Virus record (IMG/VR): IMGVR_UViG_3300027744_000008
Length of the DNA stretch: 64,000 nucleotides
From: a virus
Taxonomy: Duplodnaviria > Heunggongvirae > Uroviricota > Caudoviricetes
Direction: 5' to 3' (one strand)
A program made the translations under genes and the position numbers. Positions 6,072 through 45,215 of this stretch are shown here, one piece after another (within the stretch, counting starts at the first letter, position 1; each line of letters opens with the position of its first letter). Under the pieces are notes generated by a model. It ran no database searches and had not been told where the DNA came from. It saw only the letters and a list, made by a program, of their open reading frames with translations.

Positions 6072-7168
6072 GCAAAGAACAATACAATTTAACCACAAAG
6101 ACAGACTATCTAGATCGTAAGATGTTTCTAGATCCAGCGGGTCCTGTAACCATCCAACGCTTTGAAGAAGTTAAGTATCCTAAGATACAAAAGATTGAAC
6201 AAACAGCACGAGGCTTCTTTTGGGTACCAGAAGAAATTAGTCTAAGCAAAGATGCTAACGACTTTAAAGATGCCAGTGATGCGGTCAAACATATCTTTAC
6301 CAGCAACCTGCTACGCCAGACAGCATTAGACAGCCTACAAGGACGTGGTCCGGCACAGGTGTTTACACCTTGTGTCAGTTTACCAGAAGTCGAAGCTCTA
6401 ATGTATAATTGGAGTTTCTTTGAAACTAATATACATAGCCGTAGTTATAGCCACATTATTCGTAACATCTACAATGTACCTAAAGATGTTTTTAACACCA
6501 TCCACGATACACAAGAGATTATTGATATGGCCAGTAGTGTTGGCAAGTATTATGATTACCTACACAAATTAAATTGCCAAAAAGAAACGGGTGAAGATAT
6601 ACCTGAATTAGAACATGTTAAGGCAATATGGTTGGCACTCAACGCCAGCTATGCACTAGAAGCATTCCGTTTTATGGTCAGCTTTGCCACTAGTCTTGCC
6701 ATGGTGGAAAATAAAATCTTTATTGGTAATGGAAACATTATTAGTTTAATTCTACAAGACGAAGTCCTACACAAAGAATGGACTGCCTTAATGATTAATG
6801 CAGTGGTTAAAGAGGACAGCAGATTTGCACAGGCCAAGGAAGAGTGTGCCAACGAAGTCTATCAATTATATATAGATGTAATTTGCGAGGAGAAAGCCTG
6901 GGCTGATTATTTGTTTAAGAAAGGCCCTGTCATCGGATTGAACGCTAATATTTTAAAAGAATTTGTGGACTATACTGCTCTGCAAGCATTAAAAGATATT
7001 GGCATTAAATATCAAAGCCCTGCACCCAAGTCAACACCTATTCCGTGGTTTAACAAACATGTAGACACTAGTAAGAAGCAGACTGCCTTACAAGAAAATG
7101 AGTCAACAAACTACGTCATTGGTGTAATGGGTGATAGTATTGACTACGATGAATTACCAGCAGTATAA
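6068..7168 (+). CDS. nrdB: ribonucleoside-diphosphate reductase small subunit
   Basis: 366 aa ferritin-like diiron protein immediately downstream of nrdA, overlapping start; acidic C-terminal tail. Confidence 0.85.
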   Translation: MSKEQYNLTTKTDYLDRKMFLDPAGPVTIQRFEEVKYPKIQKIEQTARGFFWVPEEISLSKDANDFKDASDAVKHIFTSNLLRQTALDSLQGRGPAQVFTPCVSLPEVEALMYNWSFFETNIHSRSYSHIIRNIYNVPKDVFNTIHDTQEIIDMASSVGKYYDYLHKLNCQKETGEDIPELEHVKAIWLALNASYALEAFRFMVSFATSLAMVENKIFIGNGNIISLILQDEVLHKEWTALMINAVVKEDSRFAQAKEECANEVYQLYIDVICEEKAWADYLFKKGPVIGLNANILKEFVDYTALQALKDIGIKYQSPAPKSTPIPWFNKHVDTSKKQTALQENESTNYVIGVMGDSIDYDELPAV

Positions 7169-7178
7169 CGGAGAAAAA

Positions 7179-7409
7179 ATGAAAGCAATAGTATGGTCAA
7201 AATATCAATGCACATTCTGCGATCAGGCCAAGGCATTACTAACACAAAAAGGTATTGAATTTGAAGAACGCAAAATAGGTGATGGATATACCCGAGAAGA
7301 ATTATTAGAAGCAGTGCCCACGGCACGTACAGTACCACAGATTTTCCTAGATGGAGAACTAGTAGGCGGATTTAACGAATTAAAAGAAAGGTTAGTAAAT
7401 GTTAATTAA
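7179..7409 (+). CDS. glutaredoxin (NrdC/NrdH-like, CxxC redox protein)
   Basis: MKAIVWSKYQCTFCDQAKALL... CTFC active site, TVPQIF, GG motif; start re-chosen at internal ATG with RBS aacggaga; adjacent to nrdAB. Confidence 0.8.
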   Translation: MKAIVWSKYQCTFCDQAKALLTQKGIEFEERKIGDGYTREELLEAVPTARTVPQIFLDGELVGGFNELKERLVNVN

Positions 7410-8904: not shown

Positions 8905-9294
8905 ATGGCATACAGTAGTAAAGTAATTGATCATTACGAAAATCCAAGGAATGTAGGATCATTTGAAAAAGATGATCCTACAGTTGGTACAGGTATGGTC
9001 GGTGCACCGGCTTGCGGCGACGTGATGAAACTGCAAATCAAAGTAGACAAAGATGGCATTATTACCGATGCCAAATTTAAAACTTATGGATGCGGTTCAG
9101 CAATTGCCAGTTCAAGCCTTGTTACTGAGTGGGTAAAGGGTATGCATATCAATGATGCTGTCAACCTTAAAAATTCTCAAATTGCCGAAGAACTAGCCCT
9201 GCCTCCTGTAAAGATACATTGCAGTATATTAGCAGAAGATGCTATAACAGCCGCAGTGGCAGATTATCGAAAGAAGCATGATCTCTCTAACTGA
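8905..9294 (+). CDS. iscU: Fe-S cluster assembly scaffold IscU/NifU-like
   Basis: YSSKVIDHYENPRNVG, GAPACGDVMKL, YGCGSAIASSS, KIHCS motifs. Confidence 0.85.
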   Translation: MAYSSKVIDHYENPRNVGSFEKDDPTVGTGMVGAPACGDVMKLQIKVDKDGIITDAKFKTYGCGSAIASSSLVTEWVKGMHINDAVNLKNSQIAEELALPPVKIHCSILAEDAITAAVADYRKKHDLSN

Positions 9295-9601
9295 ACGTGC
9301 AGAAAATCAGATTATACAACTACTCAAAAAAAGAGGCGGCCTCGGCCTACGTATAGGTGTCAAAACTACGGGCTGTAGTGGTCTTGCCTATGTGTTAGAA
9401 TATCTAAAAGAAGATAAGTTTGACCCTGCAGACGAACGCATTGTTTACAAAGACTTTATTGTAAAAACAGCCACTAGAGATTTGGTTTATCTTAGAGGAC
9501 TAGTAGTGGACTATGTTAAAAACGGACTCAATGAAGGATTTGAATTTAAAAATCCAAATGAACGTGATCGTTGCGGGTGTGGCGAATCGTTTCGAGTATA
9601 A
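9278..9601 (+). CDS. iscA: Fe-S cluster insertion protein IscA/HesB family
   Basis: GCSGLAY... C-terminal CGCGESF signature of A-type carriers. Confidence 0.8.
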   Translation: MISLTERAENQIIQLLKKRGGLGLRIGVKTTGCSGLAYVLEYLKEDKFDPADERIVYKDFIVKTATRDLVYLRGLVVDYVKNGLNEGFEFKNPNERDRCGCGESFRV

Positions 9602-16240: not shown

Positions 16241-18130
16241 ATGAGCAAAATCATTGGTATCGACTTAGGTACAACAAATTCGTGTGTGGCTGTTATGGAA
16301 AACGGCAAAGCTAAGATCATTGAAAATAGCGAAGGCGCACGTACAACACCCTCAATCATTGCTTACACTGACAAAGAAATTCTAGTTGGTGCAACAGCAA
16401 AACGCCAAGCAGTAACAAATCCAAAAAACACAATCTATGCAGCCAAACGCTTAATTGGACGTAAGTTCAAAGAAGAAGCTGTACAAAAAGACATCGACCT
16501 GATGCCCTTCAAAATTACCGAAGCTAGTAACGGTGATGCTTGGGTCAGCGTAAATGACAAAGAACTAGCACCTCCACAAATTTCAGCGGAAGTACTACGT
16601 AAAATGAAAAAGACTGCTGAGGACTATCTTGGACATGAAGTAACAGAAGCAGTTATCACAGTACCGGCTTACTTTAATGACAGCCAACGTCAGGCAACCA
16701 AGGATGCAGGTAAAATTGCTGGACTGGATGTTAAACGTATTATCAATGAACCAACAGCGGCCGCATTAGCCTATGGTGTTGATAAAGAAGACAAACAAGA
16801 TCGTAAGATTGCAGTCTATGACCTAGGTGGTGGTACATTTGATATTTCAATCATTGAGATTGCCAACGTCGACGGCGATAAACAGATTGAAGTACTGTCA
16901 ACGAACGGTGATACATTCCTAGGTGGTGAAGACTTTGACCAACGTATTATGGATTACTTGGTTGATGAATTTAAGAAAGACACTGGCGTGGATCTCAAGA
17001 AAGATATGCTGTCACTACAGCGTCTAAAAGAAGCCGCAGAAAAAGCCAAGATTGAACTTTCAAGTTCGGCACAAACAGATGTTAACTTGCCCTACATTAC
17101 AGCAGATGCCAGTGGTCCTAAACATATGAATATTAAACTTACACGTAGTAAGTTTGAACAATTAGTTGAAGATCTAGTTGAACGCAGTATTGCTCCTTGC
17201 CGCATTGCACTACAGGATGCAGGCCTAAATCAAAACGCTATTGACGAAATTATTCTTGTTGGTGGACAAACACGTATGCCTAAAGTACAAGAAGCAGTTG
17301 AAAAATTCTTTGGTAAAGCACCACGCAAGGATGTTAACCCAGATGAGGCAGTGGCTGCAGGTGCCGCTATACAAGGTGCTGTTTTATCAGGCGACAAAAC
17401 AGATGTATTGTTGTTAGATGTTACACCGCTAAGTCTTGGTATTGAAACCATGGGCGGCATTATGACTAAACTGGTCACTAAAAACACCACTATCCCAACT
17501 AAGGCTAATCAAGTATTCAGTACAGCAGATGATAACCAACCTGCTGTTACTATCAAGGTCTTCCAAGGCGAGCGTGAGTTGTGTGCGTTCAATAAACTTC
17601 TAGGTGAGTTTAATTTAGAAGGGATTGAACCCGCACCACGTGGTATGCCACAGATTGAAGTTACCTTTGATATTGATGCCAACGGTATTCTTAATGTCAG
17701 CGCCAAAGACAAGAAAACTAATAAAGAAAAGAATATTGTCATTAAAGCCAACAGTGGACTAAGTGATGCTGAAGTTCAACAGATGATCCGTGAAGCAGAA
17801 GAAAATGCAGATGCTGATAAAAAGGCACGTGGGCTTATTGAAGCACGTAATGGTGCTGAGTCTCAAATTCATTCTTTAAAGAAAGATCTTGAGGAACACG
17901 GCGATAAGATCACTGAAGCTGAAAAGACTGAAATCGAAGAAGTTATCAAAACTGTACAAGAAGCAACCAATGGTAACGATGCAGAAGCTATCAATGAAGC
18001 AGTTGGTAAAATCTTCACTGTCGCTGGTCCATTGATGCAGAAGAAAACGGAGGCAGAGCAAGCCAAGGCTCAACCTCAACAAAACGAAAACGGCGACACC
18101 GTAGTTGATGCTGAATTCAAAGAAGTTTGA
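16241..18130 (+). CDS. dnaK: molecular chaperone DnaK (Hsp70)
   Basis: [36 protein letters not shown] Hsp70 signatures; 629 aa; RBS taaaggagaac. Confidence 0.95.
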
Positions 18131-18216
18131 CACAGACACAGACAGATAGTATAATACAGATGTAGGGCGCCGATGGTCGGGCCCTACACAGTTCTTGCTT
18201 AATAAAGGAGACTAAC

Positions 18217-18636
18217 ATGCAATTAAGAACTATTGACACTGCCGCATTGGCACAACTGAGTAAAGCACTAGTAGGCTTTGATCGTTATTTTACTGCACCA
18301 CATCATCAAAATGGTAATTATCCCCCGCACAACGTTGTCAAATATGCCGACGACAGCTATGGCATTGAAGTAGCGGTAGCAGGTTTTAGCAAAGATGAGA
18401 TCACAGTAGAAGTGGATCAAGACCAACTAACAATTCGTGGCGTTAAAAATCGGCTAACTGATCCCACTTTTGAGTACTTACATCGTGGACTAGCGGCTCG
18501 TGACTTTGAACAAACATTTACTCTTGCTGAGTATATGGAAGTTCATGGCGCCAAGGTAGAAGACGGGATGTTGCAAATTGACATTCAACGAATTATGCCC
18601 GAGGCGCTCAAACCTCGACAAATTGAAATCAAATAA
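18217..18636 (+). CDS. small heat-shock protein Hsp20 (IbpA-like alpha-crystallin domain)
   Basis: alpha-crystallin-like AVAGFSKDEITVEV...LTIRG; RBS aataaaggagac. Confidence 0.75.
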   Translation: MQLRTIDTAALAQLSKALVGFDRYFTAPHHQNGNYPPHNVVKYADDSYGIEVAVAGFSKDEITVEVDQDQLTIRGVKNRLTDPTFEYLHRGLAARDFEQTFTLAEYMEVHGAKVEDGMLQIDIQRIMPEALKPRQIEIK

Positions 18637-18650: not shown

Positions 18651-18677
18651 GGGGGAGGAAACTCCCCCTCTTTTAAA
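18651..18677 (+). terminator. rho-independent terminator (GNRA-loop hairpin gggggag-gaaa-ctccccc + U-run)
   Basis: seen after hsp20 stop; the track ORF start at 18649 lies inside this hairpin, so ClpS start moved to 18691. Confidence 0.6.
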
Positions 18678-18690: not shown

Positions 18691-18993
18691 ATGTCCACCA
18701 CTGATATCAAAATTGACGAAAAAATTAAAGTCAAAGTCGCAGAACCTAAACGTTGGAAAGTAATTTTCCTTAATGACGACTCAACTCCTATGGATTTTGT
18801 TGTTGGCATATTAATTGAAATTTTTAAACATACAGATGCCACTGCCCGTGATATTATGATTATTGTACACGAGACAGGCAGCGGCATTGCAGGTGTTTAT
18901 AGTTTTGAAATTGCCGAAGCAAAAGCAGTAGAAGCAACACAGGCAGCACGTACTAACGGATTCCCCTTACAGATTAAACTGGAAGAAGAATGA
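18691..18993 (+). CDS. clpS: ATP-dependent Clp protease adaptor ClpS
   Basis: KRWKVIFLNDDSTPMDFVVGIL...ATARDIMIIVHETGSGIAGVYSFEIAE matches ClpS core. Confidence 0.85.
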   Translation: MSTTDIKIDEKIKVKVAEPKRWKVIFLNDDSTPMDFVVGILIEIFKHTDATARDIMIIVHETGSGIAGVYSFEIAEAKAVEATQAARTNGFPLQIKLEEE

Positions 18994-19532
18994 GTTTACG
19001 TGAAATAACACAGGATTTACACGCAGACGCAGAACGTACAATATTTGCCAAGAAACTAGTAACAGGCTCCTTTACTTCAGAAGAGTATGCTAACTATCTT
19101 TGGCAAATGGTTTTAGTATACAACGGTATAGAAGTTGCAGCCAATAGTCAGGGTATGTTAAAAAACTTACCTGACATCGAAAGAACACACAAGATATTTC
19201 AAGATTGTATAGAACTGGTTGGTATACATCACAATCTTAAATGGTTGCCCGAAACCATTGACTACTATCAATATCTATTAACACTGAATTACGACTCAGA
19301 ACGTAGGCATCTTATCAAAGCACATTTATACTGCCGTCATATGGGGGACCTGTTTGGCGGACAGATCATTGCTAAAAATTGTCCGGGACAAGGAAGATTT
19401 TATCAATTCAAAGATGCTGAAAATCTAAAAACAGCCATACGTGCTGAACTTACAGACGATCTCGGAGACGAAGCCCGTGTGGCATTTGCATGGGCCATTA
19501 AACTTATGAAAGCATTGATAAAGAATGAGTGA
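18990..19532 (+). CDS. heme oxygenase
   Basis: LHADAERTIF...YANYLWQMVLVYNGIE and AHLYCRHMGDLFGGQII align with HO-1 proximal helix (H..AE..F) and AHAYTRYLGDLSGGQ motif. Confidence 0.8.
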   Translation: MSLREITQDLHADAERTIFAKKLVTGSFTSEEYANYLWQMVLVYNGIEVAANSQGMLKNLPDIERTHKIFQDCIELVGIHHNLKWLPETIDYYQYLLTLNYDSERRHLIKAHLYCRHMGDLFGGQIIAKNCPGQGRFYQFKDAENLKTAIRAELTDDLGDEARVAFAWAIKLMKALIKNE

Positions 19533-19538
19533 ACTAGT

Positions 19539-20312
19539 ATGGATTTTATAAGTAAATTCAGATGGTTTTATTACATGAATCTCATAAGTATTCCTGTGGG
19601 TATTATAGTAGCGTTTTATACATCATTGTACTGGTTACTTTTTACTTTTTTTTGGTATAGATTTGTAGGTATAATTTTTTTCTCTATTGGACTTCATAGA
19701 TATTTTGCACATAGATCTTTTAAAACTGGTCCTTTGAGACATAAAATACTTGCTCTAGGATCAATACTAACTGGTGCTGGAAGTCCTATAGCATTTTCTG
19801 CATCGCATACACATCACCATAAGCACAGTGATAAAGAATTGGATCTACATAGTCCTAAGGATGGGGCTTTTCACTCATGTGTCTCTTGGTTACTCAATTC
19901 TAAACAGTGGTTTTTTGAGGAAAAAGGAATGATTGTTCCTATGTTTGCAGTAAAAGATAGATTCGTTAACTTTGTTCATAAGTATTATTTTAGTTTATGG
20001 TTTCTGATATCTCTTAGTTTGTTCTTGATTGACTGGAAACTTTTTCTGTTTATGATACCAGTAACAGCAGGCATTGGTACTTTAACAAATAATTTTGTCG
20101 GGGTATATATTGCCCATGTGAAATTACCCGGATCATACAAAAATTTTGATACAAAGGATAATAGTTATAATAATCAATTTGTTCAATTGTTGGAAATAGC
20201 AGAAGGGTATCACAATAATCATCACGCAGATCCTTCTAATTATAACTTTGCTAGAAAACCAGGTGAGTTTGATGCGTGTGCCTGGATAATTGAAAGATTT
20301 TTTAAAATATGA
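19539..20312 (+). CDS. membrane acyl-lipid/acyl-CoA delta-9 desaturase-like protein (paralog 1)
   Basis: His boxes HRYFAHRSFK, HTHHHKHSDKELDLHSPKDG, EGYHNNHHADP; 2+2 TM topology. Confidence 0.7.
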   Translation: MDFISKFRWFYYMNLISIPVGIIVAFYTSLYWLLFTFFWYRFVGIIFFSIGLHRYFAHRSFKTGPLRHKILALGSILTGAGSPIAFSASHTHHHKHSDKELDLHSPKDGAFHSCVSWLLNSKQWFFEEKGMIVPMFAVKDRFVNFVHKYYFSLWFLISLSLFLIDWKLFLFMIPVTAGIGTLTNNFVGVYIAHVKLPGSYKNFDTKDNSYNNQFVQLLEIAEGYHNNHHADPSNYNFARKPGEFDACAWIIERFFKI

Positions 20313-20989
20313 ATGATGTTTGGAATACCTTAATTGAAATTGAAAACTACTTTGAATCAAAGTTTTATGCTACAGGCAGTATCGTAAACGAGCCAGGAAT
20401 GGATCGCTTTAACCAACCAGGTTGGGTTAACAAAGTTTGGGCCAGTAGTCAGTATCGTAGAGCACACATTGATGTAGTAGATGCCCGTGACACCAAGGGA
20501 CTTTGGATGATGCACTGCTGTGTATTTCCACACTTGCACAATCCTGCACCTATCTTTGGATTTGATGTAGTAGCAGGTAAAAACAAGATCACAGGCTGCT
20601 TTCACGACTTTAGTCCAGCAGGCGATCATAATCATCCTCTAATTGACTGGTTCATGGAAGAATCAGAAAAACTTACTTGGAATAAAAAGCGACCCTTACC
20701 AGACTGGGCAGAACGTATCTTTACCAAACATATGATTGCTGCGGGCAACGTCAGCGAAGAAGACGAACTAGCGCAGATTTTAGCCATGGCACGTAAGAAC
20801 TTAAACTGCTATCTAGATGAAGTGGGACTAACTAATAATACTGTGGATAATACAAAAGACGCACAGAATTACTATGCACAGAATCAAAAAATGAACCCGC
20901 ATACGCCTAAAGTCATGGCTAGCCTAGGCCTAAACGAAAAAGATGTGCAGTTGTTTATTCAGGACTGTTTGTTCCCGGAGATAGTATAA
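20309..20989 (+). CDS. ferredoxin-dependent bilin reductase (PcyA/PebS/PcyX family)
   Basis: VNKVWASSQYRRAHIDVVDARDTKGLWMMHCCVFPHLHNPAPIFGFDVVAG aligns with PcyA W.AS.YRKIHLE..DILHCVMFP..PLFGCD..AG core; directly downstream of heme oxygenase. Confidence 0.75.
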   Translation: MNDVWNTLIEIENYFESKFYATGSIVNEPGMDRFNQPGWVNKVWASSQYRRAHIDVVDARDTKGLWMMHCCVFPHLHNPAPIFGFDVVAGKNKITGCFHDFSPAGDHNHPLIDWFMEESEKLTWNKKRPLPDWAERIFTKHMIAAGNVSEEDELAQILAMARKNLNCYLDEVGLTNNTVDNTKDAQNYYAQNQKMNPHTPKVMASLGLNEKDVQLFIQDCLFPEIV

Positions 20990-23290: not shown

Positions 23291-23626
23291 ATGCGTAAAA
23301 CAGTAATGGCGTTCCTATTCTGCCTAACTAGCTCTATAGCCAACGCCCAAGAACCGGTGCCAATATTCACAGACACTGTGATGAAAGATAATTCTTTGAT
23401 TGTATTAGGCCAGCAGGTATGGGACGGTCAGTGTCGACACTGCCACGGCAACAGTGCGTATCCTGGCAAGGCACCCAAACTTAAATCTAGCAGTTATCAA
23501 CCTGATTTTGTCTACGATCGGGTGACCAATGGATTTCGCAAAATGCCTGGTTGGAAAGCTGTCTTTAGTGAACAACAGCGAATCGGGGTAACTGCATATA
23601 TATTGAGTGATAAATTTTCACCCTAA
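23291..23626 (+). CDS. class I c-type cytochrome (c553/c6-like), secreted
   Basis: signal peptide + CRHCHG heme-binding CxxCH + distal KMPGW Met ligand. Confidence 0.6.
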   Translation: MRKTVMAFLFCLTSSIANAQEPVPIFTDTVMKDNSLIVLGQQVWDGQCRHCHGNSAYPGKAPKLKSSSYQPDFVYDRVTNGFRKMPGWKAVFSEQQRIGVTAYILSDKFSP

Positions 23627-23654: not shown

Positions 23655-23954
23655 ATGAAAAAGGCAATTACGGTGGCGTTCCTATTCTGCCTAACTAGCT
23701 CTATAGCAAACGCCCAGGAGATTATTGATTTAAACAAAGCAATGAAATGTTCAGACCCACAAAAAGTAATGAACTATTTTGTTGATACGCACAAAGAAAC
23801 ACCAATCTGGGTTGGTAAGACAGTACATAATAGTCATATAACATTGTTAATGAACAAAGAAACACGTTCATGGACTATAATAGAATATGATGTTAAATTA
23901 GCCTGTGTACTAGGTGCCGGTGAAGACAAGTCGGGCAGCAGTCCTGAAATTTAA
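23655..23954 (+). CDS. secreted hypothetical protein sharing the signal peptide of the upstream cytochrome
   Basis: AFLFCLTSSIANAQE identical to 23291 gene N-terminus (about 45 nt near-identical DNA). Confidence 0.45.
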   Translation: MKKAITVAFLFCLTSSIANAQEIIDLNKAMKCSDPQKVMNYFVDTHKETPIWVGKTVHNSHITLLMNKETRSWTIIEYDVKLACVLGAGEDKSGSSPEI

Positions 23955-27596: not shown

Positions 27597-27704
27597 TATG
27601 CCTAGCCCACGTAGGGTCAGTCAGATTTTAAAAGGCAAAAAGCCTCCAAAGCCAAAGACAGTTAAGACTATGGCTAAACGAGTAGTTAGACGAAAGTCTA
27701 AATA
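27597..27704 (+). CDS. tiny Arg/Lys-rich peptide (35 aa)
   Basis: RBS aaaggaaataaatt; MPSPRRVSQILKGKKPPKPKTVKTMAKRVVRRKSK. Confidence 0.3.
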
Positions 27705-28045
27705 AGAAATTGTTGTAATTCCTTCAAAGTGAAGGCATTCTGGACGCGGGTTCGACTCCCGCCAGGTCCACCATTAAGTATACTCTATCCGCAAGGAGAC
27801 AAGTGGGTTCATCCATGTAGTGTACTTAATAATGGGCCTGCCATGGCTTCGACAGGGTGAGATAATAGAGACGGCAACACGGTAGGCGATGACCGTTAAT
27901 CAAGCAAAAACCGTAAATGCAACCGCAAATACATTCAAGTTTTGGCAAGCACCAGTTAGCATCGCTGCTAACGACGAGTTTGCACTAGCAGCCTAAGAAA
28001 CTGCACTTGCGAGGTAGGAAAGACCTTGTCATCCAACACACCAAA
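27705..28045 (+). ncRNA. ssrA: two-piece (circularly permuted) tmRNA: acceptor piece ending ...GGUUCGACUCCCGCCAGGUCCACCA (about 27705-27773), coding piece from GGGCCUGCCAUGGCUUCGACAGGG (27834) with tag reading frame ...AANDEFALAA-stop
   Basis: tRNA-like T-arm plus CCA precedes the 5' acceptor strand (gggcctg pairs caggtcc); gct gct aac gac gag ttt gca cta gca gcc taa = AANDEFALAA; gene closed by a terminator. Confidence 0.75.
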
Positions 28046-28072
28046 AAGGTTGCTTCGGCAACCTTTTTTCTT
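28046..28072 (+). terminator. rho-independent terminator (aaggttgc-ttcg-gcaacctt + U-run)
   Basis: seen directly after tmRNA. Confidence 0.7.
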
Positions 28073-28114
28073 TATAATACACACATCACAACACAACAAA
28101 CACGAAAGAAATAG

Positions 28115-31637: not shown

Positions 31638-32432
31638 ATGAAACGTATTTTTACTCTCTCTATTCTTGCTGCCGCAATTTTGGCCGCAGGTTGCACCCGT
31701 ATTGAAACCGGCGAGGTAGGTGTGCGTGTGGGCTTTGACCGACAGATTCAGCCAGGTGAACTCATGCCCGGATCATTCAATCAAACCATGATTGGTGATG
31801 TGCTTACATTCCCTATCAAGGACGTGAATGTAGTGCTTGAGAACATGACTCCCGTTGCCAAAGACAACAGCACAATGAAAGACTTTGATGCTGTGGTTGT
31901 TTACAACATCAATCCACAACAAGTAAGTGAATTGTATAGTACCAAGAACAAGAGTTTTCACGCTGAGTTCAAAGGTGACACCTATGTGATGTACAACTAC
32001 ATTGTGCAAAATGCTCGTAACGCTATCTACAAAGCCACACGTAAATATGAAGCATTAGACATGGCAGACAATCGTACTGAAATGGAAAACTATATCAAGG
32101 ATGAAATTACACGAAACCTTACTGAAGAAAAACTAGATGGCTCAATCACCATCAATCAAGTTATGGTTCGTAGTGTAATTCCTGCTGATAGTGTTGTTGA
32201 AAGTGCAAACGCACTGGTTCGTAGCAAAAACGAACTCAAGCAAAAGGAAGTTGAAGTTAAAACTGCCGAAGCAGAGTCACGCAGAATGGCAGCATTGGCT
32301 AATAACAGCGGTGCTAGTATTGCATTCATGCAAGCACAGGCTATGTTGAATATCAGTGAAGGTATCAAGAATGGTCGAGTGCAGACTATCGTTGTACCTA
32401 GCAACTTTAACGCATTGATGATGAACAAGTAA
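31638..32432 (+). CDS. SPFH/band-7 (HflK/C-like) lipoprotein
   Basis: lipobox LAAGCT; TGEVGVRVGF...VLENMTP core of SPFH domain. Confidence 0.55.
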   Translation: MKRIFTLSILAAAILAAGCTRIETGEVGVRVGFDRQIQPGELMPGSFNQTMIGDVLTFPIKDVNVVLENMTPVAKDNSTMKDFDAVVVYNINPQQVSELYSTKNKSFHAEFKGDTYVMYNYIVQNARNAIYKATRKYEALDMADNRTEMENYIKDEITRNLTEEKLDGSITINQVMVRSVIPADSVVESANALVRSKNELKQKEVEVKTAEAESRRMAALANNSGASIAFMQAQAMLNISEGIKNGRVQTIVVPSNFNALMMNK

Positions 32433-32657
32433 TATGTGGGCGTTGATTATTGCACTTACAATGGATGTAGCACCGTTTGAGGTAAAGTTTACTCAATTGG
32501 CCGAGGTCAAAACATATCAAGAATGTAGAGACCTTTCTAAAATCCTGAAGGACCGTGGTCTAAACGCCCACTTATTTTGTGTGCAACAACAATAATGTCT
32601 ACACGGTGATAATCACCATGTGCCGCATGTACGATGATTTTTGGAACTAAATAGGAT

Positions 32658-33455
32658 ATGATGACTTTCAACAACAAGTTCCGAATTCTTTATATTTTAC
32701 TTTTGCTCAGTGTTCCTGCAAGTATAATAGTGGCCTTTGAAACTAGTTGGTGGTATTTAATTTGTAGTCTTGTTTGGTTTCGATTTACAAACACCATTTT
32801 CACTCAGATCGGATTACATAGATACTTTGCACATAGAAATTTTAAGACAGGCCCTTGGCGCCATCGATTGCTTGCTGTTGGAACTGTATTAAACGGCAGC
32901 GGCAGTATTATTACTTGGGGTTCAAACCATATACATCATCATAGGTATTCAGATAAACCAACGGATGTGCATAGTCCAAATGATGGCTGGTGGCATGTTG
33001 CATTTTCGTGGGCTATATCTAGTAAAGAATATTTCACTGAAGAAAAGAAAATTATTGTACCCAGATATCTGTTGAAAGATAAATTGATAGTCTGGTTACA
33101 CAATAATTATTTTATGATATGGTTTGTTGGTATTGTTGCGTTGACTCTAATTGATTGGAAGTTTGCGCTGTTTGGATTAATGGCACCTGCAGGATGGAAT
33201 ATTTTATCAGGTAATGTTTTGGCTAATCTGTTGACACACATAAAATTGTTCGGCTCTTATAGAACCTTTAACACCAGTGACAATAGTTATAACAACAAGT
33301 TTATACAAATACTTGTATTTGGTGAAGGTTTGCACAACAATCACCATCATGATCCCAGCAAGCACAACCAAGCTGTGAAGCCGGGAGAATATGATCCAGC
33401 CAGCTGGATCATTAAACACTGCTTTGAAACTAAATCTAGTGCAGAACAACAATAA
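32658..33455 (+). CDS. delta-9 desaturase-like membrane protein (paralog 2)
   Basis: HRYFAHRNFK, HIHHHRYSDKPTDVHSPNDG, EGLHNNHHHDP His boxes. Confidence 0.7.
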   Translation: MMTFNNKFRILYILLLLSVPASIIVAFETSWWYLICSLVWFRFTNTIFTQIGLHRYFAHRNFKTGPWRHRLLAVGTVLNGSGSIITWGSNHIHHHRYSDKPTDVHSPNDGWWHVAFSWAISSKEYFTEEKKIIVPRYLLKDKLIVWLHNNYFMIWFVGIVALTLIDWKFALFGLMAPAGWNILSGNVLANLLTHIKLFGSYRTFNTSDNSYNNKFIQILVFGEGLHNNHHHDPSKHNQAVKPGEYDPASWIIKHCFETKSSAEQQ

Positions 33456-33706
33456 TGGCCAGTCTTACTGATTACTTTGCTAAGAATGCATACAAACCCA
33501 AGTACTTTATTGGTGATAGAGTATTTGGCCAGTATAACAATATTCCATTTATAGGCACTGTTGGTAATGACACTATAATCAGTGAAATAGAAGGTCCTCG
33601 TATCAGTATACACTTAGATTTACCAATTAAAATTGATAATGAAATTAAAACTGTTATCATTGTCAAACACAAAAATATAAAGCGTTTGAAGTTAATGAAC
33701 GACTAA
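33455..33706 (+). CDS. hypothetical small protein
   Basis: ORF track; ATGGCC overlap with previous stop. Confidence 0.35.
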   Translation: MASLTDYFAKNAYKPKYFIGDRVFGQYNNIPFIGTVGNDTIISEIEGPRISIHLDLPIKIDNEIKTVIIVKHKNIKRLKLMND

Positions 33707-33725
33707 AACGTTCACTAAATATCAA

Positions 33726-35246
33726 ATGCAAACAATAATATTCTCAGATGTCTTATCTCCTGGCTTTGGTAGAAACGCCGGCGCATATAGAATAGCAACA
33801 CAGCTTAGGAACAATGGTTATACTTGCCAAGTTATAGATCATTGTACTCGATACACCCAAGACGAGTATGTAAAAATAATAGATAAGTTTGTTACCAAAG
33901 ACACACTTTGGGTAGGTATATCTAATACATTTTTCTTTCCTCTTATACAAGAAGGTCCTGCTGACGGTCGATTTAATGATGTGTTTGATAAGGTCTTTGG
34001 AAAGATTTCTGATTTTCGTAGCGGTTATCCGTTTGAATCAGATACTATGCAAAAATTGTTCTGGTACATACGAAGCAAGAATGAAAATGTAAAAATAATA
34101 ATAGGTGGCGCTAGATCAAAAGAAGCACTACGATATGATGCAGGGGAAAAGGGTGTCTTTGCCGACTACTATGTACACGGGTATGCAGATGAAGCTATAG
34201 TTGAGTTAACTAATTGGCTAAGATCAAATAAAAGTCCTAGACCTAAATTGGACATTATCCATAAATCAATTATAGATTCAAATATGGATTATCCCTATCA
34301 GCACTTTAATAATTGTAATATAAAATACATCAAAGAAGATTTGATTTCTCCTGATGAATATTTGCCTATTGAAATAGCACGAGGTTGTATTTTTAAGTGT
34401 AAATTTTGTAGTTTTTCTTTACTAGGTAAAAAACGTGGTGATTATACCAAGACTAAAGAGACTCTAATTAATGAATTCATGTATAACTATGAAACATTTG
34501 GTACAACCAACTACATGTTCATGGATGAAACTACCAATGACAGTATGGAAAAGGCTGAATATCTTTTAGATGTTACATCTAGTTTGCCTTTTAAGATTCG
34601 ATGGGGCGGCTATGCAAGATTGGATTTACATTATGCTAATCCTGACATGGCAGCAATCATGAAGGAAAGTGGCCAGAGGCATACACAGTTTGGAATAGAG
34701 ACATTCAATCATCAAAGTGGTAAAGCAATTGGCAAGGGATTAGATCCGGAAAAAATTAAAAAAACATTAGAGAAGTTAAAACATGAATGGAAGAACGATG
34801 TTAGAATCACCACAGGACTAATTGTTGGCCTGCCCTATGAAACTAGGCGGTCTCTAAAAGATTTAGAAAACTATCTGTTGAGCGATGATTGTAATTTAGA
34901 TGCATGGGTGCTACATCCGTTGCTACTGGTTGAAGAAAGTGTATTTGGAGAAGATCCGGCAAAGTACGGGTATACATTTGAGCAGGGATCTTCTCAAATT
35001 TTAAACTGGAAAAACAGCGAAATGAATTTTGAAGATGCTGTTCAAATTGTTACTGAAATTAGAAATAATACCAAGCATAAGTGCAAATTAAATACTTGGA
35101 GCCATATGCGACTACAGAACATTGGCTACACTGAATCAGAAGTTGACAGCATGAACACTGAAACATATTTGTCAACTATGACAACGATTGCAGAAAGAAT
35201 GACTTTAAAGAAAGATACTTATTTTCGTCATTTGATGTCGTTGTGA
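33726..35246 (+). CDS. radical SAM enzyme with N-terminal B12-binding-like domain (class B-like)
   Basis: ARGCIFKCKFCSF (CxxxCxxC) cluster motif at the expected position after a Rossmann-like N-terminal domain. Confidence 0.6.
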   Translation: MQTIIFSDVLSPGFGRNAGAYRIATQLRNNGYTCQVIDHCTRYTQDEYVKIIDKFVTKDTLWVGISNTFFFPLIQEGPADGRFNDVFDKVFGKISDFRSGYPFESDTMQKLFWYIRSKNENVKIIIGGARSKEALRYDAGEKGVFADYYVHGYADEAIVELTNWLRSNKSPRPKLDIIHKSIIDSNMDYPYQHFNNCNIKYIKEDLISPDEYLPIEIARGCIFKCKFCSFSLLGKKRGDYTKTKETLINEFMYNYETFGTTNYMFMDETTNDSMEKAEYLLDVTSSLPFKIRWGGYARLDLHYANPDMAAIMKESGQRHTQFGIETFNHQSGKAIGKGLDPEKIKKTLEKLKHEWKNDVRITTGLIVGLPYETRRSLKDLENYLLSDDCNLDAWVLHPLLLVEESVFGEDPAKYGYTFEQGSSQILNWKNSEMNFEDAVQIVTEIRNNTKHKCKLNTWSHMRLQNIGYTESEVDSMNTETYLSTMTTIAERMTLKKDTYFRHLMSL

Positions 35247-35277
35247 CAATAAATACTATTCAAGGAGGGGCAACCTA

Positions 35278-35436
35278 TGAAACAACGAAAGTTAATTCAA
35301 AAATTGTATAAGGCTTGCTTCGACCGCGATGCCGAGAAACAGTTTGAACTTCGAAAGAAGGAATTCGCCAAGATCTTGAAACACAAGGCCGAAGGTAAAC
35401 CATTTACACATAAATGGACTTTAGTTCAAATATAAC
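35278..35436 (+). CDS. small basic protein (52 aa), not in ORF track
   Basis: strong RBS caaggaggggcaacct. Confidence 0.35.
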
Positions 35437-35481
35437 ACAGGTGTAATCACAGTGTAATCAATTGAGCGGTAAATATTCTAT

Positions 35482-36351
35482 ATGAAGACATACCGCTCAA
35501 TCTTTATTAGCGATGTACATCTTGGCACTAAAGACTGCCAGGCAGATAAACTCAACAACTTCTTAAAACATAATACCTGCGAAACGCTATATCTTGTAGG
35601 AGATATTATTGATGCTTGGAAAATCAAACAAAACAAGTGGCGCTGGAAACAGTCGCACACTAATGTTATTCGTCGTGTGCTGGGTCATAGCAAGCGCGGT
35701 ACTAGGGTTGTATATGTGGCTGGTAATCACGACGAGTTTCTAAGACCATTCATGCAATATGACATTGGTTTTGGTATGATCGAAGTCACAAATCAATTAG
35801 AACATATAGGTGCCGACGGCCGGCATTATCTTGTAGTGCATGGCGACCTGTTTGACGGTATTACTAGACTGGCGCCTTGGTTGGCAATGTTAGGAGATAA
35901 AGCATATGATTTCATTCTTGGACTCAATACTCGGATTAATTGGATTCGTCATCGTTTTGGTTTTGGGTACTTTAGCCTTAGCCTGTTTCTTAAGCACCGG
36001 GTCAAAAAAGCAGTAGACTTTATATTTCATTTTGAACGCAATCTTGCACAGTACTGTAAGAAGCGTGGATTTGATGGTGTTATCTGTGGGCATATACACC
36101 ACGCAGAGATTAAAGAGATAGACGGCGTTGTATATATGAATGACGGCGACTGGGTTGAAAGTTGTACAGCACTGGTAGAACATCATAACGGTGAGTGGGA
36201 AATTATAACCTGGACCAAGGAGAAGGACAATGTGGTTGATGATATTGATAGCAATACACACAGCGAATTCGCAAGATCAACCCGGAAGAATAGAACTACA
36301 GTTTCTAGATCAACGGACCTGCGAACAAACACTAATGACTATGAAATATGA
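35482..36351 (+). CDS. LpxH-family metallophosphoesterase (UDP-2,3-diacylglucosamine hydrolase-like)
   Basis: IFISDVHLG, YLVGDIIDAW, AGNHDEF, VVHGDLFD, CGHIHH - same motif order as LpxH (FIADLHL, ILGDLFEAW, HGNRD, HGDTL, HGHTH). Confidence 0.65.
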   Translation: MKTYRSIFISDVHLGTKDCQADKLNNFLKHNTCETLYLVGDIIDAWKIKQNKWRWKQSHTNVIRRVLGHSKRGTRVVYVAGNHDEFLRPFMQYDIGFGMIEVTNQLEHIGADGRHYLVVHGDLFDGITRLAPWLAMLGDKAYDFILGLNTRINWIRHRFGFGYFSLSLFLKHRVKKAVDFIFHFERNLAQYCKKRGFDGVICGHIHHAEIKEIDGVVYMNDGDWVESCTALVEHHNGEWEIITWTKEKDNVVDDIDSNTHSEFARSTRKNRTTVSRSTDLRTNTNDYEI

Positions 36352-36384
36352 TTTAAAATTTAAAAGTTTTAAGGTAGTAGGCGA

Positions 36385-37389
36385 ATGCAAAAAACAATCT
36401 TAATCGTCACAGACAATTTACCGGAGCAGATCAATGGTGTTGTTACAACCTACAAAAATATTGAGGCGCTTGCGATTCGCGACAACTATCGTGTTGTATA
36501 TATTGATCCCGGGAGGTTCCGCCATGTTGATTGCCCTGGCTACAACGAAGTCAAGATTACCCTTACCAGGAAACGCACAGTGGGCAAGATACTTGAGGAG
36601 ATCAATCCGGATCATATCCATATCGCCACCGAAGGTCCTTTGGGTCTGTGTGCTAGACAATATCTTGACCAACACGGTTATCGCTACAACACTGCTTATC
36701 ATACTAAGTTTCCAGAAGGAATTAGAAAGCTGTTTGGCATACCTGAGAGTGTTACTTGGCCTCTAGTGCGTTGGTTTCATAAGCATTCGGGCAAAGTACT
36801 AACAACAACAGACAGCATGGTCAAGGAGTTAAAAGATCATGGTTTTGATGGAGATGTTATCTCATGGACTCGCGGTGTTGACCGTGACATATTTCATCCT
36901 GCACACAGAGTAGAAACTGTCAGCAGGTATCTCTTGTGCGTCAGCAGAGTTAGCAAAGAGAAGAATCTTGAAAAGTTCTTTGAACTAGACTATCCCGGCT
37001 ATTTAAAAGTCATGGTCGGCGATGGTCCCATGCTTGAAACATATCGAAAACAGTACCCAGATGTACATTTTACTGGATACAAAACTGGAGTAGATCTAGC
37101 ACGTTACTATGCTAATGCAGAAGCATTTGTGTTTCCAAGTCGCTGGGAAACATTTGGGCTCGTAATGATTGAAGCCATGGCCTGCGGAACCCCGGTCGCT
37201 GCTTTTCCTGTACAAGGACCCTTGGATGTTGTCGACGAAGGTGTTACTGGTTGCCTAAATGATGACTTAAAACAAGCAGTCAAAGATTCACTAATGCTGG
37301 ACCGTCAACGTGTTTGGGAAGGCAGTGCTCGTTGGTCGTGGGAACGTGCATGGGAAATATTCTGTAATAATTTGGTAGAAAAAAATTAA
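36385..37389 (+). CDS. glycosyltransferase family 1 (GT4-type)
   Basis: EAFVFPSRWETFGLVMIEAMACGTPV E-x7-E motif. Confidence 0.75.
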   Translation: MQKTILIVTDNLPEQINGVVTTYKNIEALAIRDNYRVVYIDPGRFRHVDCPGYNEVKITLTRKRTVGKILEEINPDHIHIATEGPLGLCARQYLDQHGYRYNTAYHTKFPEGIRKLFGIPESVTWPLVRWFHKHSGKVLTTTDSMVKELKDHGFDGDVISWTRGVDRDIFHPAHRVETVSRYLLCVSRVSKEKNLEKFFELDYPGYLKVMVGDGPMLETYRKQYPDVHFTGYKTGVDLARYYANAEAFVFPSRWETFGLVMIEAMACGTPVAAFPVQGPLDVVDEGVTGCLNDDLKQAVKDSLMLDRQRVWEGSARWSWERAWEIFCNNLVEKN

Positions 37390-42598: not shown

Positions 42599-42685
42599 GG
42601 ATGTGTGTGCCGAATGGTGAAGGCAGCTGACTGTAAATCAGTGACATAAGAAACGTTGGTGGTTCGAGTCCATCCGCATCCACCA
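42599..42685 (+). tRNA. tRNA-Tyr(GTA), type II, CCA encoded
   Basis: hand-folded: acceptor ggatgtg/cgcatcc, loop cuGUAaa, long variable arm. Confidence 0.75.
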
Positions 42686-42690
42686 AATTT

Positions 42691-42765
42691 GGTCCTGTCA
42701 TATAGTGGCTATTATACCGGCCTGTCTAGTCGGATATCGGGGTTCGATTCCCCGCAGGATCGCCA
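42691..42765 (+). tRNA. tRNA-Asp(GTC)
   Basis: acceptor ggtcctg/caggatc, loop cuGUCua, T-arm cgggg-ttcgatt-ccccg, disc G. Confidence 0.6.
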
Positions 42766-42769
42766 ATTA

Positions 42770-42844
42770 GGGGGATTCATATACTGGGTATTATGCCTGC
42801 CTTGCACGTAGGTCAAAAGAGTTCGATTCTCTTATCCTCCACCA
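42770..42844 (+). tRNA. tRNA-Ala(TGC) with G3:U70
   Basis: loop cuUGCac; G3-U70 identity pair present. Confidence 0.75.
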
Positions 42845-42917
42845 GTTTTAGGATAGCAACAGCAAACAAATCCAATTTCACTTTTAATGAAAAAAAGATG
42901 CTATCCTGTTTTATTAT

Positions 42918-42994
42918 GCGACCTTAGCTCAGTTGGATAGAGCACTTGCCTACGAAGTAAGGGGTCAGGAGTTCGAGTCTCTTAGGTCGCGCCA
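42918..42994 (+). tRNA. tRNA-Arg(ACG)
   Basis: loop cuACGaa; acceptor gcgacct/aggtcgc. Confidence 0.75.
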
Positions 42995-43001
42995 AATATA
43001 T

Positions 43002-43076
43002 TCCCTAGTAGCTCAGCGGTAGAGCAGCAGGCTGTTAACTTGTTGGTCCGTGGTTCGATCCCACGCTGGGGAGCCA
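43002..43076 (+). tRNA. tRNA-Asn(GTT), U1-A72 as in E. coli
   Basis: loop cuGUUaa. Confidence 0.7.
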
Positions 43077-43084
43077 ATTTATGT

Positions 43085-43159
43085 TGGGGTGTAGTGTAAT
43101 GGCTATCACAGCGGGCTTTGAACTCGCTAATCTTGGTTCGATTCCAAGCACCCCTACCA
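43085..43159 (+). tRNA. tRNA-Gln(TTG) with U1.U72 mismatch
   Basis: loop cuUUGaa; acceptor tggggtg vs cacccct. Confidence 0.6.
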
Positions 43160-43233
43160 GTTTTAGGTTAATTACAGCGATAAAAAATGGCTGTCTGCTA
43201 GGACGTTAAACTAGTATTAACCTGTTTTATTTT

Positions 43234-43308
43234 ACTCCGGTCGTCTAGTGGCTAGGACGCCAGCCTTTCAAGTTGGAGAAGCGGGATCGAAACCCGTTCG
43301 GAGTACCA
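43234..43308 (+). tRNA. tRNA-Glu(TTC) copy 1 (A1-U72)
   Basis: D/anticodon region cgtctagtggctaggacgccagccTTTCAAgttgg matches Glu family. Confidence 0.65.
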
Positions 43309-43315
43309 AGTTTAT

Positions 43316-43393
43316 ATAGCGGTGGCAGAGAGGCCCATTGCATCGGATTGCAAATCCGAAAAACCGTGAGTTCAAATCTCACCCGCTATTCCA
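43316..43393 (+). tRNA. tRNA-Cys(GCA), discriminator U73
   Basis: tcgga-ttGCAaa-tccga; U73 Cys identity. Confidence 0.65.
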
Positions 43394-43398
43394 AATTT

Positions 43399-43472
43399 GC
43401 CCTTTTAGTTAAATGGTATAACAACTGTTTTGTAATCAGTTATTGGCAGTTCGATTCTGTCATGGGGCACCA
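43399..43472 (+). tRNA. tRNA-Thr(TGT) copy 1 (U31.U39)
   Basis: actgt-tuUGUaa-tcagt resembles B. subtilis Thr-UGU arm. Confidence 0.65.
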
Positions 43473-43705
43473 AGTTTTGAGAGTGTCAGCAAGTGAAGTC
43501 ACGCTGTTTAGTATTCTTCGAAGGTACTGAGCAGTAAAAGGCAAATGGGTTCAACTCCCACCCGCGGGCAACTGCGGAGGTCCGTAATGGGGACTACGCT
43601 GGACGGATCCCAAGTGATATCCATCGTGCTCGAGGTCAGGCTAGGCGGCCGGTAAGTCCTGAATAAATCTACGATAAAAGCGGCGTAGGCTCTCAAATTC
43701 AATTT

Positions 43706-43780
43706 CCTCTTGTAGCTCAATGGTAGAGCACTCGCTTGATAAGCGATAGACCTAAGGTTCGATTCCTTTCGAGAGGACCA
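43706..43780 (+). tRNA. tRNA-Ile(GAT)
   Basis: loop uuGAUaa; acceptor cctcttg/cgagagg. Confidence 0.7.
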
Positions 43781-43937
43781 AGTTTCGAGTTAGACGTCAA
43801 CGTTGAGTCCCCATGGCATAGCACAATGCGGATTGTGTGACACACCAGTATGCTAATAGAGGTTGTTTAAACTCCGTTGCGCGAGACAATCTAGCGAGTC
43901 TTCCCAGGAGGATAGTTAGGCACTTGAAAATCTATTA

Positions 43938-44016
43938 CTGGGATTATTGTCAGTCAGGTCAGACGGCTCGCCTTGGAAGTGAGAGGTCGCAGGTTCGAAT
44001 CCTGCATCCCAGACCA
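43938..44016 (+). tRNA. tRNA-Pro-like (anticodon TGG; C1-G72, A73), irregular D-arm
   Basis: ctcgc-cuUGGaa-gtgag; 79 nt; 3 nt between acceptor and D-stem. Confidence 0.45.
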
Positions 44017-44030
44017 AAGACTTCTTTGGT

Positions 44031-44104
44031 GTGACTATGTTGTAATGGTAGCAACACAGATTGTGATTCTGTTAGCATGGGTTCGATCCCCATTAGTCAC
44101 CCCA
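44031..44104 (+). tRNA. tRNA-His(GTG), C73, no encoded G-1
   Basis: acaga-uuGUGau-tctgt; perfect acceptor gtgacta/tagtcac. Confidence 0.75.
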
Positions 44105-44114
44105 AAGAAGTTTT

Positions 44115-44192
44115 GCCCTTGTGGACAAATTGGTAAAGTCGCCTCTCTCAAAAGGAGTAGTTCTGTCTGTTCGAATCAGACCAAGGGTACCA
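44115..44192 (+). tRNA. atypical class-I tRNA with anticodon CAA (Leu codon UUG) but no long variable arm
   Basis: cctct-cuCAAaa-ggagt; variable region only 6 nt; good T-arm and acceptor. Confidence 0.45.
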
Positions 44193-44194
44193 AT

Positions 44195-44268
44195 GCTCTT
44201 ATAGTTAAATGGTAGAACACCTCTTTGGTATGGAGGTAATGGTAGTTCGATTCTACCTAAGAGCACCA
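44195..44268 (+). tRNA. tRNA-Thr(GGT)
   Basis: cctct-uuGGUau-ggagg. Confidence 0.75.
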
Positions 44269-44277
44269 AAAGTATAT

Positions 44278-44353
44278 GCCAAGATAGCTCAGTTGGTAGA
44301 GCACCGGTCTGAAGAATCGGGTGTGGTTGGTTCGATCCCAACTCTTGGTACCA
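44278..44353 (+). tRNA. tRNA-Phe(GAA)
   Basis: ccggt-cuGAAga-atcgg. Confidence 0.8.
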
Positions 44354-44602: not shown

Positions 44603-44608
44603 ATTCAT

Positions 44609-45210: not shown

Positions 45211-45215
45211 AGTTA

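Follow-up and report, generated by a model that had tools for sequence, protein, structure and literature searches.

A heme oxygenase and PcyX-type bilin reductase cassette with an intervening desaturase gene in a probable huge freshwater phage

Adjacent ho1 and pcyX-like genes, for a heme oxygenase and a ferredoxin-dependent bilin reductase, were described in large freshwater phages by Chen et al. 2020 (bioRxiv 10.1101/2020.02.13.942896), and phage genomes of this class from Lake Grosse Fuchskuhle are 318–374 kb in size with a GC content of 38–41% (Wegner et al. 2024, PMC11480375). At the position of a PcyA Glu, PcyX carries Asp; the Asp is tied to phycoerythrobilin, and the Glu, needed for 18-vinyl reduction, to phycocyanobilin (PMC13446030, PMC11480375). 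The stretch analysed here (the window; 64,000 nucleotides, IMG/VR virus record IMGVR_UViG_3300027744_000008) carries at 18,990–20,989, outer coordinates given exactly in the initial annotation, genes for a compact heme oxygenase (ho) and a PcyX-type reductase (pcyX) separated by a membrane desaturase gene (Table 1). This region is very probably a heme-catabolic auxiliary cassette (ho plus reductase) of a huge freshwater phage, into which the desaturase gene has been inserted secondarily. The initial annotation presented the system as more open than it is, since freshwater huge-phage hemO-pcyX cassettes have already been published (PMC11480375).

Heme oxygenase, bilin reductase and the predicted route to a bilin

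The reductase scores 61.3 bits against Pfam PF05996 (cut-off 31) and belongs to phrog_7278 (‘ferredoxin oxidoreductase’, 7.6e-21). Its closest sequence in the PDB is phage PcyX (5OWG), matched over the full length with an E-value of 8e-72 that makes a chance assignment untenable; PcyA entries come next (3e-14), while PebS, PebA and PebB gave no match in this search (E ≤ 0.01). Identity in a MAFFT alignment is 55% to PcyX, 53% to the enzyme of Pelagibacter phage Mosig and 23% to Synechocystis PcyA. The PcyA/PebS core motif previously quoted for this open reading frame (ORF) is present (VWASSQYRRAHIDVVDARDTKGLWMMHCCVFPHLHNPAPIFGFDVVAG), as are the catalytic Asp and His residues, here Asp55, His69 and Asp86 numbered as in PcyX and corresponding to PcyA Glu76, His88 and Asp105 (residue roles and the Asp/His/Asp criterion from PMC13446030, Table 2, and PMC11480375). 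All three are kept in 209 of 209 close relatives (68–96% identity), across which 102 of the 226 positions are ≥98% conserved. A search of 1.84 billion cluster representatives returned 337 reductase families, and in a neighbour-joining tree of the 83 full-length ones the window enzyme, Mosig and PcyX form a clade apart from the all-Glu PcyA clade, with the window enzyme in a subclade separate from, and sister to, marine PcyX. Given the 5OWG match, the Asp55/His69/Asp86 triad and the position in the tree with the PcyX/alphaproteobacterial-PcyA (‘AX’-like) clade, the enzyme is classed by sequence as PcyX-like, not PcyA, PebS, PebA or PebB, as the initial annotation had proposed; neither a missing catalytic residue nor an unrelated fold was found.

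Because Asp rather than Glu occupies the position of PcyA Glu76, together with the His/Asp pair, phycoerythrobilin is the somewhat favoured prediction for the product, most likely formed via 15,16-dihydrobiliverdin. An enzyme that is functionally PcyA, like that of phage CB_2, and yields phycocyanobilin or a two-electron product instead is unlikely, though the idea carries some weight: the sole tested freshwater phage reductase, that of CB_2, gives phycocyanobilin (PMC11480375), the window enzyme lies in a subclade apart from marine PcyX, and position 55 varies across the AX-like clade, where D, S, N, Q, K, E or C is found while His69 and Asp86 are almost invariant (cluster representatives P0241–P0390 and PMC11480375 Supplementary Dataset 6). 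However, CB_2 has Glu at position 55 and its reductase is only 34% identical to that of the window, which is markedly closer to PcyX (identity as above) and has the PcyX residues at all three positions, as do all its 209 close relatives. The Asp55 freshwater subclade comprises ~5,000 public sequences and no characterised member, so phycoerythrobilin is a prediction here, and as only the D and E forms at position 55 have been characterised, other bilin products are possible within the clade.

The upstream gene encodes an oxygenase that scores 64.4 bits against Pfam PF01126 (cut-off 23) and matches heme oxygenases in the PDB (E 4e-8), an alignment that places His11 on the proximal ligand position and GDLFGGQ on the distal helix; H11, G119, D120, L121, G123, G124 and Q125 are invariant in 29 homologues. 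An AlphaFold model (predicted local distance difference test score, pLDDT, 88.7) has the all-helical heme oxygenase fold over its full length, with template modelling (TM) scores of 0.82–0.86 against rat and human HO-1, HmuO and Synechocystis HO-1 (rat HO-1, 0.86), bearing out the HO-1 likeness noted initially. The length norm for the family is 177–183 aa (683 homologues). The CB_2 enzyme vHemO, 31% identical to the window oxygenase, makes biliverdin IX-alpha (PMC11480375). Within one and the same conserved gene block in 80 related viral loci (L040–L119; see below), the oxygenase is 34–92% identical to that of the window and the adjoining reductase 68–80%, and one published genome has a window-type oxygenase (79%) beside a Glu55 reductase (38%); on these sequence comparisons, oxygenase alleles appear to have been exchanged between phage lineages.

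With an oxygenase of PF01126 and a reductase of PF05996, the two-enzyme route from heme to a bilin suggested by the initial annotation stands. Judging from family membership, the oxygenase would open the ring of host heme b, giving biliverdin IX-alpha, Fe2+ and CO at the expense of O2 and host reductant, and the reductase would then reduce biliverdin with four electrons from a ferredoxin, assumed to be the host’s because none is encoded in the 64 kb scanned. We prefer the reading that the bilin itself is the selected product and iron release a side benefit, because other phages add genes for 5-aminolevulinate synthase (PMC11480375) or ferrochelatase (Mosig), which push flux towards heme and bilin. 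Selection might instead be for iron recovered from heme to supply phage iron enzymes, with the reductase merely clearing biliverdin so that the oxygenase keeps turning over. An iron-supply role has been discussed (PMC11480375), and the window encodes a genuine IscU (its 222 bits exceed the NCBIfam cut-off), an IscA-type protein and many iron enzymes (class I ribonucleotide reductase, rubrerythrin, a radical SAM enzyme, TauD, an Asp/Arg hydroxylase and four di-iron desaturases). On the other hand, 5-aminolevulinate synthase and ferrochelatase in other cassettes speak for making heme, not scavenging it, and the reductase is strongly constrained, including its product-determining residues, which mere clearance does not obviously need. 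Iron recovery as the selected function is therefore doubtful, although it deserves serious consideration beside the preferred bilin.

The desaturase gene at the ho–pcyX junction

The gene between ho and pcyX, which leaves ho 0.78 kb upstream of the reductase gene, encodes a protein whose PDB match is mouse/human stearoyl-CoA desaturase SCD1 (4YMK, E 2.7e-16). It has three His boxes (HRYFAH, HTHHH and HNNHH, of the forms HX4H, HX2HH and HX2HH), and His 53, 58, 90, 93, 94, 193, 225, 228 and 229 are invariant in 41 homologues. The structural model (pLDDT 96.8) shows the four-transmembrane-helix SCD1 fold, with SCD1 entries as the sole significant PDB matches (E 3e-9, TM 0.76); against the NCBIfam DesA family the protein scores 46 bits (cut-off 400). 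From sequence and model, the product is predicted to be an intact, compact Delta9-type di-iron acyl desaturase. Such an enzyme would have membrane acyl chains as its substrate and stand apart from the bilin route, with which it would share no more than timing, O2 and reductant. The initial annotation described the oxygenase–reductase pair as flanked by a desaturase paralog: paralogy is correct, three more copies being present elsewhere in the window by tblastn (four in all; Table 1), but the gene lies between ho and the reductase gene rather than beside them.

Synteny was compared across 80 related IMG/VR viral loci (L040–L119; the ‘far’ junction of L119 was left out of the gene check). A proteostasis block encoding ribosomal protein S21, exonuclease, MazG, DnaK, Hsp20, ClpS, heme oxygenase and PcyX is conserved in most of them, and ho abuts pcyX in nearly all, with a gap of −4 to 41 nt and no intervening gene in 74 of 80; the order is reversed (pcyX then ho, adjacent) in six. 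None of the 80 has a desaturase gene between the two. Five carry one other gene at the junction, for either a class II aldolase (PF00596, 1e-28) or a 2-oxoglutarate (2OG)-Fe(II) oxygenase (PF13759, 6e-14), and in two marine relatives the cargo is a C-N hydrolase gene or 2OG oxygenase plus C-N hydrolase genes. A single desaturase gene at this site was seen only in the window’s own lineage. A second lineage (364 kb contig IMG/VR 3300042350_002797; L008–L010) has two, with oxygenase, desaturase and reductase 88%, 70% and 70% identical, respectively, to those of the window. We found no published description of a desaturase gene between hemO and pcyX.

Comparison with two desaturase-free relatives (L054 and L096) exposes an insertion scar at the start of pcyX. 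In relatives with the same oxygenase type that lack the desaturase gene, the end of ho reads AAAGATGAGTGAcGTATGGAAcac, with the pcyX ATG overlapping the ho stop codon. The left edge of the insert in the window retains AAGAATGAGTGAactaGTATGGAtttt, and the desaturase gene starts at an ATG that lay within the former Val4-Trp5 codons of pcyX; after the insert pcyX has a new start, ATGAATGATGTTTGGAAT. A stretch of 26 nt in L054 aligns with sequence on either side of the insert. Repeats sought in its surroundings were only short and probably due to chance, apart from a copy overlapping the scar.

The absence of a desaturase gene from all 80 loci, the other cargo found at the junction, the scar and the paralogs and arrays elsewhere together indicate, on sequence grounds, that the desaturase gene is a secondary, lineage-specific insertion into the 5′ end of pcyX and does not supply a third pathway enzyme. 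At least four unrelated gene families occupy the ho–pcyX junction across lineages (variants in L069/L070/L074, L073/L075, L125, L127 and L008–L010), always tightly packed, and in freshwater and marine relatives alike the boundary behaves, as judged from these sequences, as a recurrent cargo site. It repeatedly receives unrelated metabolic genes, so genes lying at this site should not be taken for members of the pathway.

The initial annotation counted close coupling with the desaturase among the hints of a PcyX-like system in a phage of a heterotroph. One reading would make the three genes a single pathway, the desaturase acting on a tetrapyrrole or bilin-lipid conjugate, or being fed by the oxygenase with Fe2+ and sharing its ferredoxin. 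The packing is certainly close: the desaturase ATG lies 6 nt past the ho stop codon, and its stop codon overlaps the pcyX start (ATGA). Two lineages, moreover, retain the arrangement (70% identity), reductant is required by all three enzymes and O2 by two of them, Fe(II)-dependent oxygenases are among the other cargo at the junction, and the phage encodes IscU and IscA. Nevertheless, a common pathway is very improbable. The 80 related loci do without a desaturase at a junction where ho and pcyX are mostly adjacent, the class II aldolase and C-N hydrolases found there have no iron link, and the fold and nine-His site are those of an acyl-chain desaturase; the window holds three further members of the family, arrays of as many as nine copies lack ho and pcyX, and in Mosig the desaturase gene lies 20 kb from ho-pcyX. 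The coupling is therefore no pointer to function. It is also improbable, though slightly less so, that the junction is a dedicated slot for O2- and iron-dependent enzymes (di-iron desaturases, 2OG-Fe(II) oxygenases) loaded with the Fe2+ that the oxygenase releases; if it were, phage IscU and IscA would handle the remainder, heme would serve as a private iron store and the bilin would be a by-product.

The compact SCD1/DesC-type family to which the inserted gene belongs (~245–280 aa) is multi-copy in several IMG/VR contigs (L012, L013, L014, L018 and L020), including tandem arrays without ho or pcyX that reach nine divergent copies within 10 kb (L013). Both HX2HH boxes are kept in 93 of 93 desaturase ORFs, and the first box is recognisable in all except three short ones; distinct His-box subtypes recur in the same order across viral contigs. 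No description of a multi-copy compact desaturase family in phages was found in the literature searched, and the family apparently has gone undescribed so far.

Several points weigh against the interpretation of the region as a bilin-forming cassette with a secondarily inserted desaturase gene. No ferredoxin, GAF/phytochrome, globin/phycobiliprotein, bilin-binding protein or lyase is encoded among the ~85 ORFs scanned (64 kb of the genome). The reductase tree is a simple neighbour-joining tree without support values, and identity to the characterised reductases is only 55% (PcyX) and 34% (CB_2). Because position 55 varies within the AX-like clade, product specificity across it is, as far as sequence can indicate, evidently labile. 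Finally, the desaturase insert is, to judge from its sequence, old and retained and not a transient passenger, because the arrangement is kept with 70% identical orthologues in the second lineage.

Phage genome, host and neighbouring genes

The viral context recognised initially is borne out by two clusters with 32 tRNA genes in total, by a permuted tmRNA and by close relatives found on viral contigs in IMG/VR. Also encoded in the window are tail-type domains (PAAR and Mtd_N) and a cell-wall hydrolase, besides ribonucleotide reductase and ribosomal protein S21. Two further contigs, of 176 kb (JGI 3300045678 Ga0492733_0000009) and 37 kb (ENA), hold near-identical copies of the region, and 334 reductase relatives were found in IMG/VR, on contigs of up to 383 kb. 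In a DNA-level search of a phage collection only Mosig matches (69% over 158 nt). Reductases of the Lake Grosse Fuchskuhle phages are 67–70% identical to that of the window and one oxygenase is 79% identical; the window probably derives from a huge freshwater phage with a genome of ~320–375 kb.

Table 1 Coordinates of the cassette and other features in the window
Feature	Position	Strand	Evidence or remark
Glutaredoxin, IscU and IscA-type protein genes	7131-7409, 8905-9294, 9278-9601		adjoin class I ribonucleotide reductase
dnaK	16241-18130	+	member of conserved upstream block
Sigma-70 promoter-like site (TTGACA-17-TATAAT) upstream of hsp20	18127..18155	+	12/12 consensus matches; consensus match only
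hsp20	18217..18636	+	PF00011 3.6e-16; phrog_432 5e-36; syntenic in nearly all related loci
Terminator-like G+C hairpin (GGGGGAGGAAACTCCCCC) and T-run between hsp20 and clpS	18651..18668	+	
clpS, Clp protease adaptor	18691..18993 (longest ORF from 18649)	+	PF02617 4e-27
Compact heme oxygenase (HemO/HO-1 family), 180 aa	18990..19532	+	PF01126 1.7e-17
Insertion scar, remnant of ancestral pcyX start (ATGAGTGA...GTATGGA)	19525..19543	+	comparison with L054, L096
Compact membrane desaturase (SCD1/DesC Delta9 type), 257 aa, between ho and pcyX	19539..20312	+	PF00487 4.7e-14
PcyX-type ferredoxin-dependent bilin reductase, 226 aa	20309..20989	+	PF05996 1.4e-16; phrog_7278
Permuted (two-piece) tmRNA	27661-28087		best score as betaproteobacterial permuted type, 121 bits; tag ends ANDEFALAA
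Desaturase paralog 2	32658..33455	+	50% identity to inserted copy (tblastn); PF00487 1.8e-16; His boxes intact
tRNA genes, two clusters	42599-55669		
Desaturase paralog 3	62556..63314	+	30% identity (tblastn)
Desaturase paralog 4, cut by window end	63362..64000	+	30% identity (tblastn)

A bacterial rather than viral origin of the window, in the form of a cellular bilin island resembling the one in Bradyrhizobium ORS278 or pre-PcyA clusters, is scarcely credible. Many of its genes are of cellular type (DnaK, IscU, ribonucleotide reductase, tmRNA, tRNAs), and a scan of 185,579 species genomes with an alignment of seven reductase sequences detected relatives in eight loci, all of them on contigs of metagenome-assembled genomes (MAGs; L120–L127). 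However, these eight MAGs come from unrelated taxa (assigned to Polynucleobacter, Arcticimaribacter, Halobacteroidaceae, Coraliomargarita, Crocinitomicaceae, Neomarinimicrobiota, Pirellulales and Rickettsiales), all carry the same Hsp20-ClpS-ho-(x)-pcyX phage block, mostly on short contigs (one is 335 kb), and no isolate genome in the scan has a relative. The relatives are IMG/VR viral genomes, tail-type domains, a single strand bias and tight packing mark the window itself, and it lacks the phytochrome, V4R or globin partner found in cellular clusters (PMC10151467). The eight MAG loci are probably mis-binned phage DNA, in agreement with the published restriction of PcyX to phages.

A heterotrophic host is plausible by analogy, because the cultured SAR11 phage Mosig has the same gene pair and related large phages have been assigned to methanotrophs (bioRxiv 10.1101/2020.02.13.942896). 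A cyanobacterial host, with the bilin feeding phycobiliproteins as for cyanophage PebS/ho1, is most unlikely. Some cyanobacteria also have a permuted tmRNA, distant relatives of the reductase occur in cyanophages and Mosig is classified in Kyanoviridae. Yet the 64 kb scanned contain no photosynthesis genes, the best tmRNA score is for the betaproteobacterial permuted type, SAR11 is the host of the phage with the nearest cultured relative of the ho-pcyX pair and, besides the methanotroph assignments, PcyX-bearing contigs have been treated as non-cyanophage (PMC11480375). A reductase fragment 66% identical to the window enzyme is recorded for ‘actinobacterium SCGC AAA041-L1’, a freshwater single-cell genome (PMC11480375 Supplementary Dataset 6); it may be a host lead or come from a co-sorted phage particle, and it conflicts with the Gram-negative flavour of the tmRNA. 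Among the tRNA genes, that for tRNA-Ile with anticodon TAT (49,252–49,345) is unusually long for its type (94 nt).

Upstream of the cassette, the clpS stop codon overlaps the ho start codon (ATGA), and co-expression of ho and pcyX is suggested by their packing, in which stop codons overlap start codons. The true clpS start is probably the ATG at 18,691, because the hairpin at 18,651–18,668 falls within the longest clpS ORF; clpS homologues are 99–104 aa. After this hairpin the next terminator-like one is at 22,837, and on the location of these two hairpins clpS, ho, the desaturase gene, pcyX and two downstream ORFs may form one unit. Further on, two adjacent small ORFs (23,291–23,626 and 23,655–23,954) begin with an almost identical signal peptide (AFLFCLTSSIANAQE); the product of the first is c-type cytochrome-like, and several small ORFs nearby also look secreted.

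The neighbourhood of desaturase paralog 2 (31,638–37,389) is a run of membrane- and envelope-type genes, including those for an SPFH/Band 7 protein, a GT4 glycosyltransferase, a metallophosphatase weakly similar to LpxH and a B12-binding radical SAM enzyme with weak matches to the PhpK, lipid-ladder and HpnJ families. The gene named LpxH in the initial annotation (35,482–36,351) does not hold up as such, scoring 43.8 bits against a cut-off of 134, in the N-terminal half only, and is better called a generic metallophosphoesterase; the outer-membrane barrel reported with it was not recovered in Pfam or NCBIfam scans. The iron-sulfur assembly set listed in Table 1 (glutaredoxin, IscU and an IscA-type protein) coexists with the heme oxygenase and many iron enzymes in one phage. 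At 58,397–61,111 lies a gene for a 904-aa protein with beta-propeller repeats and a weak di-heme peroxidase-like stretch, with sub-threshold matches to hydrazine synthase beta/gamma subunits and cytochrome d1, a gene type unexpected for a phage.

Comparison with known systems

Cyanophage P-SSM2 (Dammeyer et al. 2008) resembles the window in pairing a phage heme oxygenase (ho1) with a four-electron reductase, PebS, whose product is phycoerythrobilin. PebS, however, belongs to another reductase lineage (PebA/PebS/PUBS), which gave no match to the window reductase in tblastn of the phage collection at E ≤ 1e-5, and acts in a cyanobacterial host with phycobiliproteins. The Delta9 lipid desaturases of cyanophages (vFAD; Roitman et al. 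2018, PMC5776448) are likewise DesC/SCD-type membrane desaturases with three His boxes; they have been proposed to alter host membrane fluidity and need O2 and ferredoxin (PMC5776448). They are too distant to be found by tblastn with the window desaturase, for which only the Mosig desaturase matches in the phage collection, and the window enzymes differ from them in being compact (~250–270 aa), multi-copy and in a non-cyanophage context. The hemO-pcyA-alaS-bphP island of Bradyrhizobium sp. ORS278 shares with the window an AX-clade reductase beside a heme oxygenase in a non-cyanobacterial setting; unlike the window it is cellular, has Glu at the position-76 equivalent, leads to phycocyanobilin and includes an adjacent phytochrome gene.

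The PcyX/HemO pairs of marine uncultured phages and of Pelagibacter phage Mosig (PcyX_EBK42635, PDB 5OWG; Ledermann et al. 2016, 2018) comprise the same enzymes in the same order, and the reductases have the same triad with the same numbering (55% identity for PcyX, 52–53% for Mosig). Mosig, as a phage of a heterotroph carrying this cassette, parallels the plausible case for the window. The heme oxygenase is only 30% identical, however, and the window is of freshwater origin with a much larger genome, its reductase falls in a sister subclade, and the conserved DnaK-Hsp20-ClpS neighbourhood and the intervening desaturase gene set it apart.

The hemO-pcyA/X(-valaS) cassettes that large freshwater phages carry (Chen et al. 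2020; Wegner et al. 2024, PMC11480375) come from the same habitat and genome class. Reductases of the Lake Grosse Fuchskuhle phages have the same triad, and a tailings-pond contig (IMG 3300001605, 72 kb) has the same upstream Hsp20-ClpS-ho-pcyX block, whereas the valaS-bearing cassettes differ in encoding a 5-aminolevulinate synthase, absent from the window. The sole biochemically tested freshwater member, CB_2, stands further off in its Glu55, its phycocyanobilin product and the low identity of both enzymes (reductase 34%, oxygenase 31%), and the same values exclude the window as a copy of the published CB_2 phage, whose ho and pcyX genes lie ‘one gene apart’. The window opens no new route to the function of a bilin pigment in a phage whose host is non-photosynthetic. 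The hemO-pcyX cassette itself is already published from this genome class; what differs here is the desaturase gene between its two genes.

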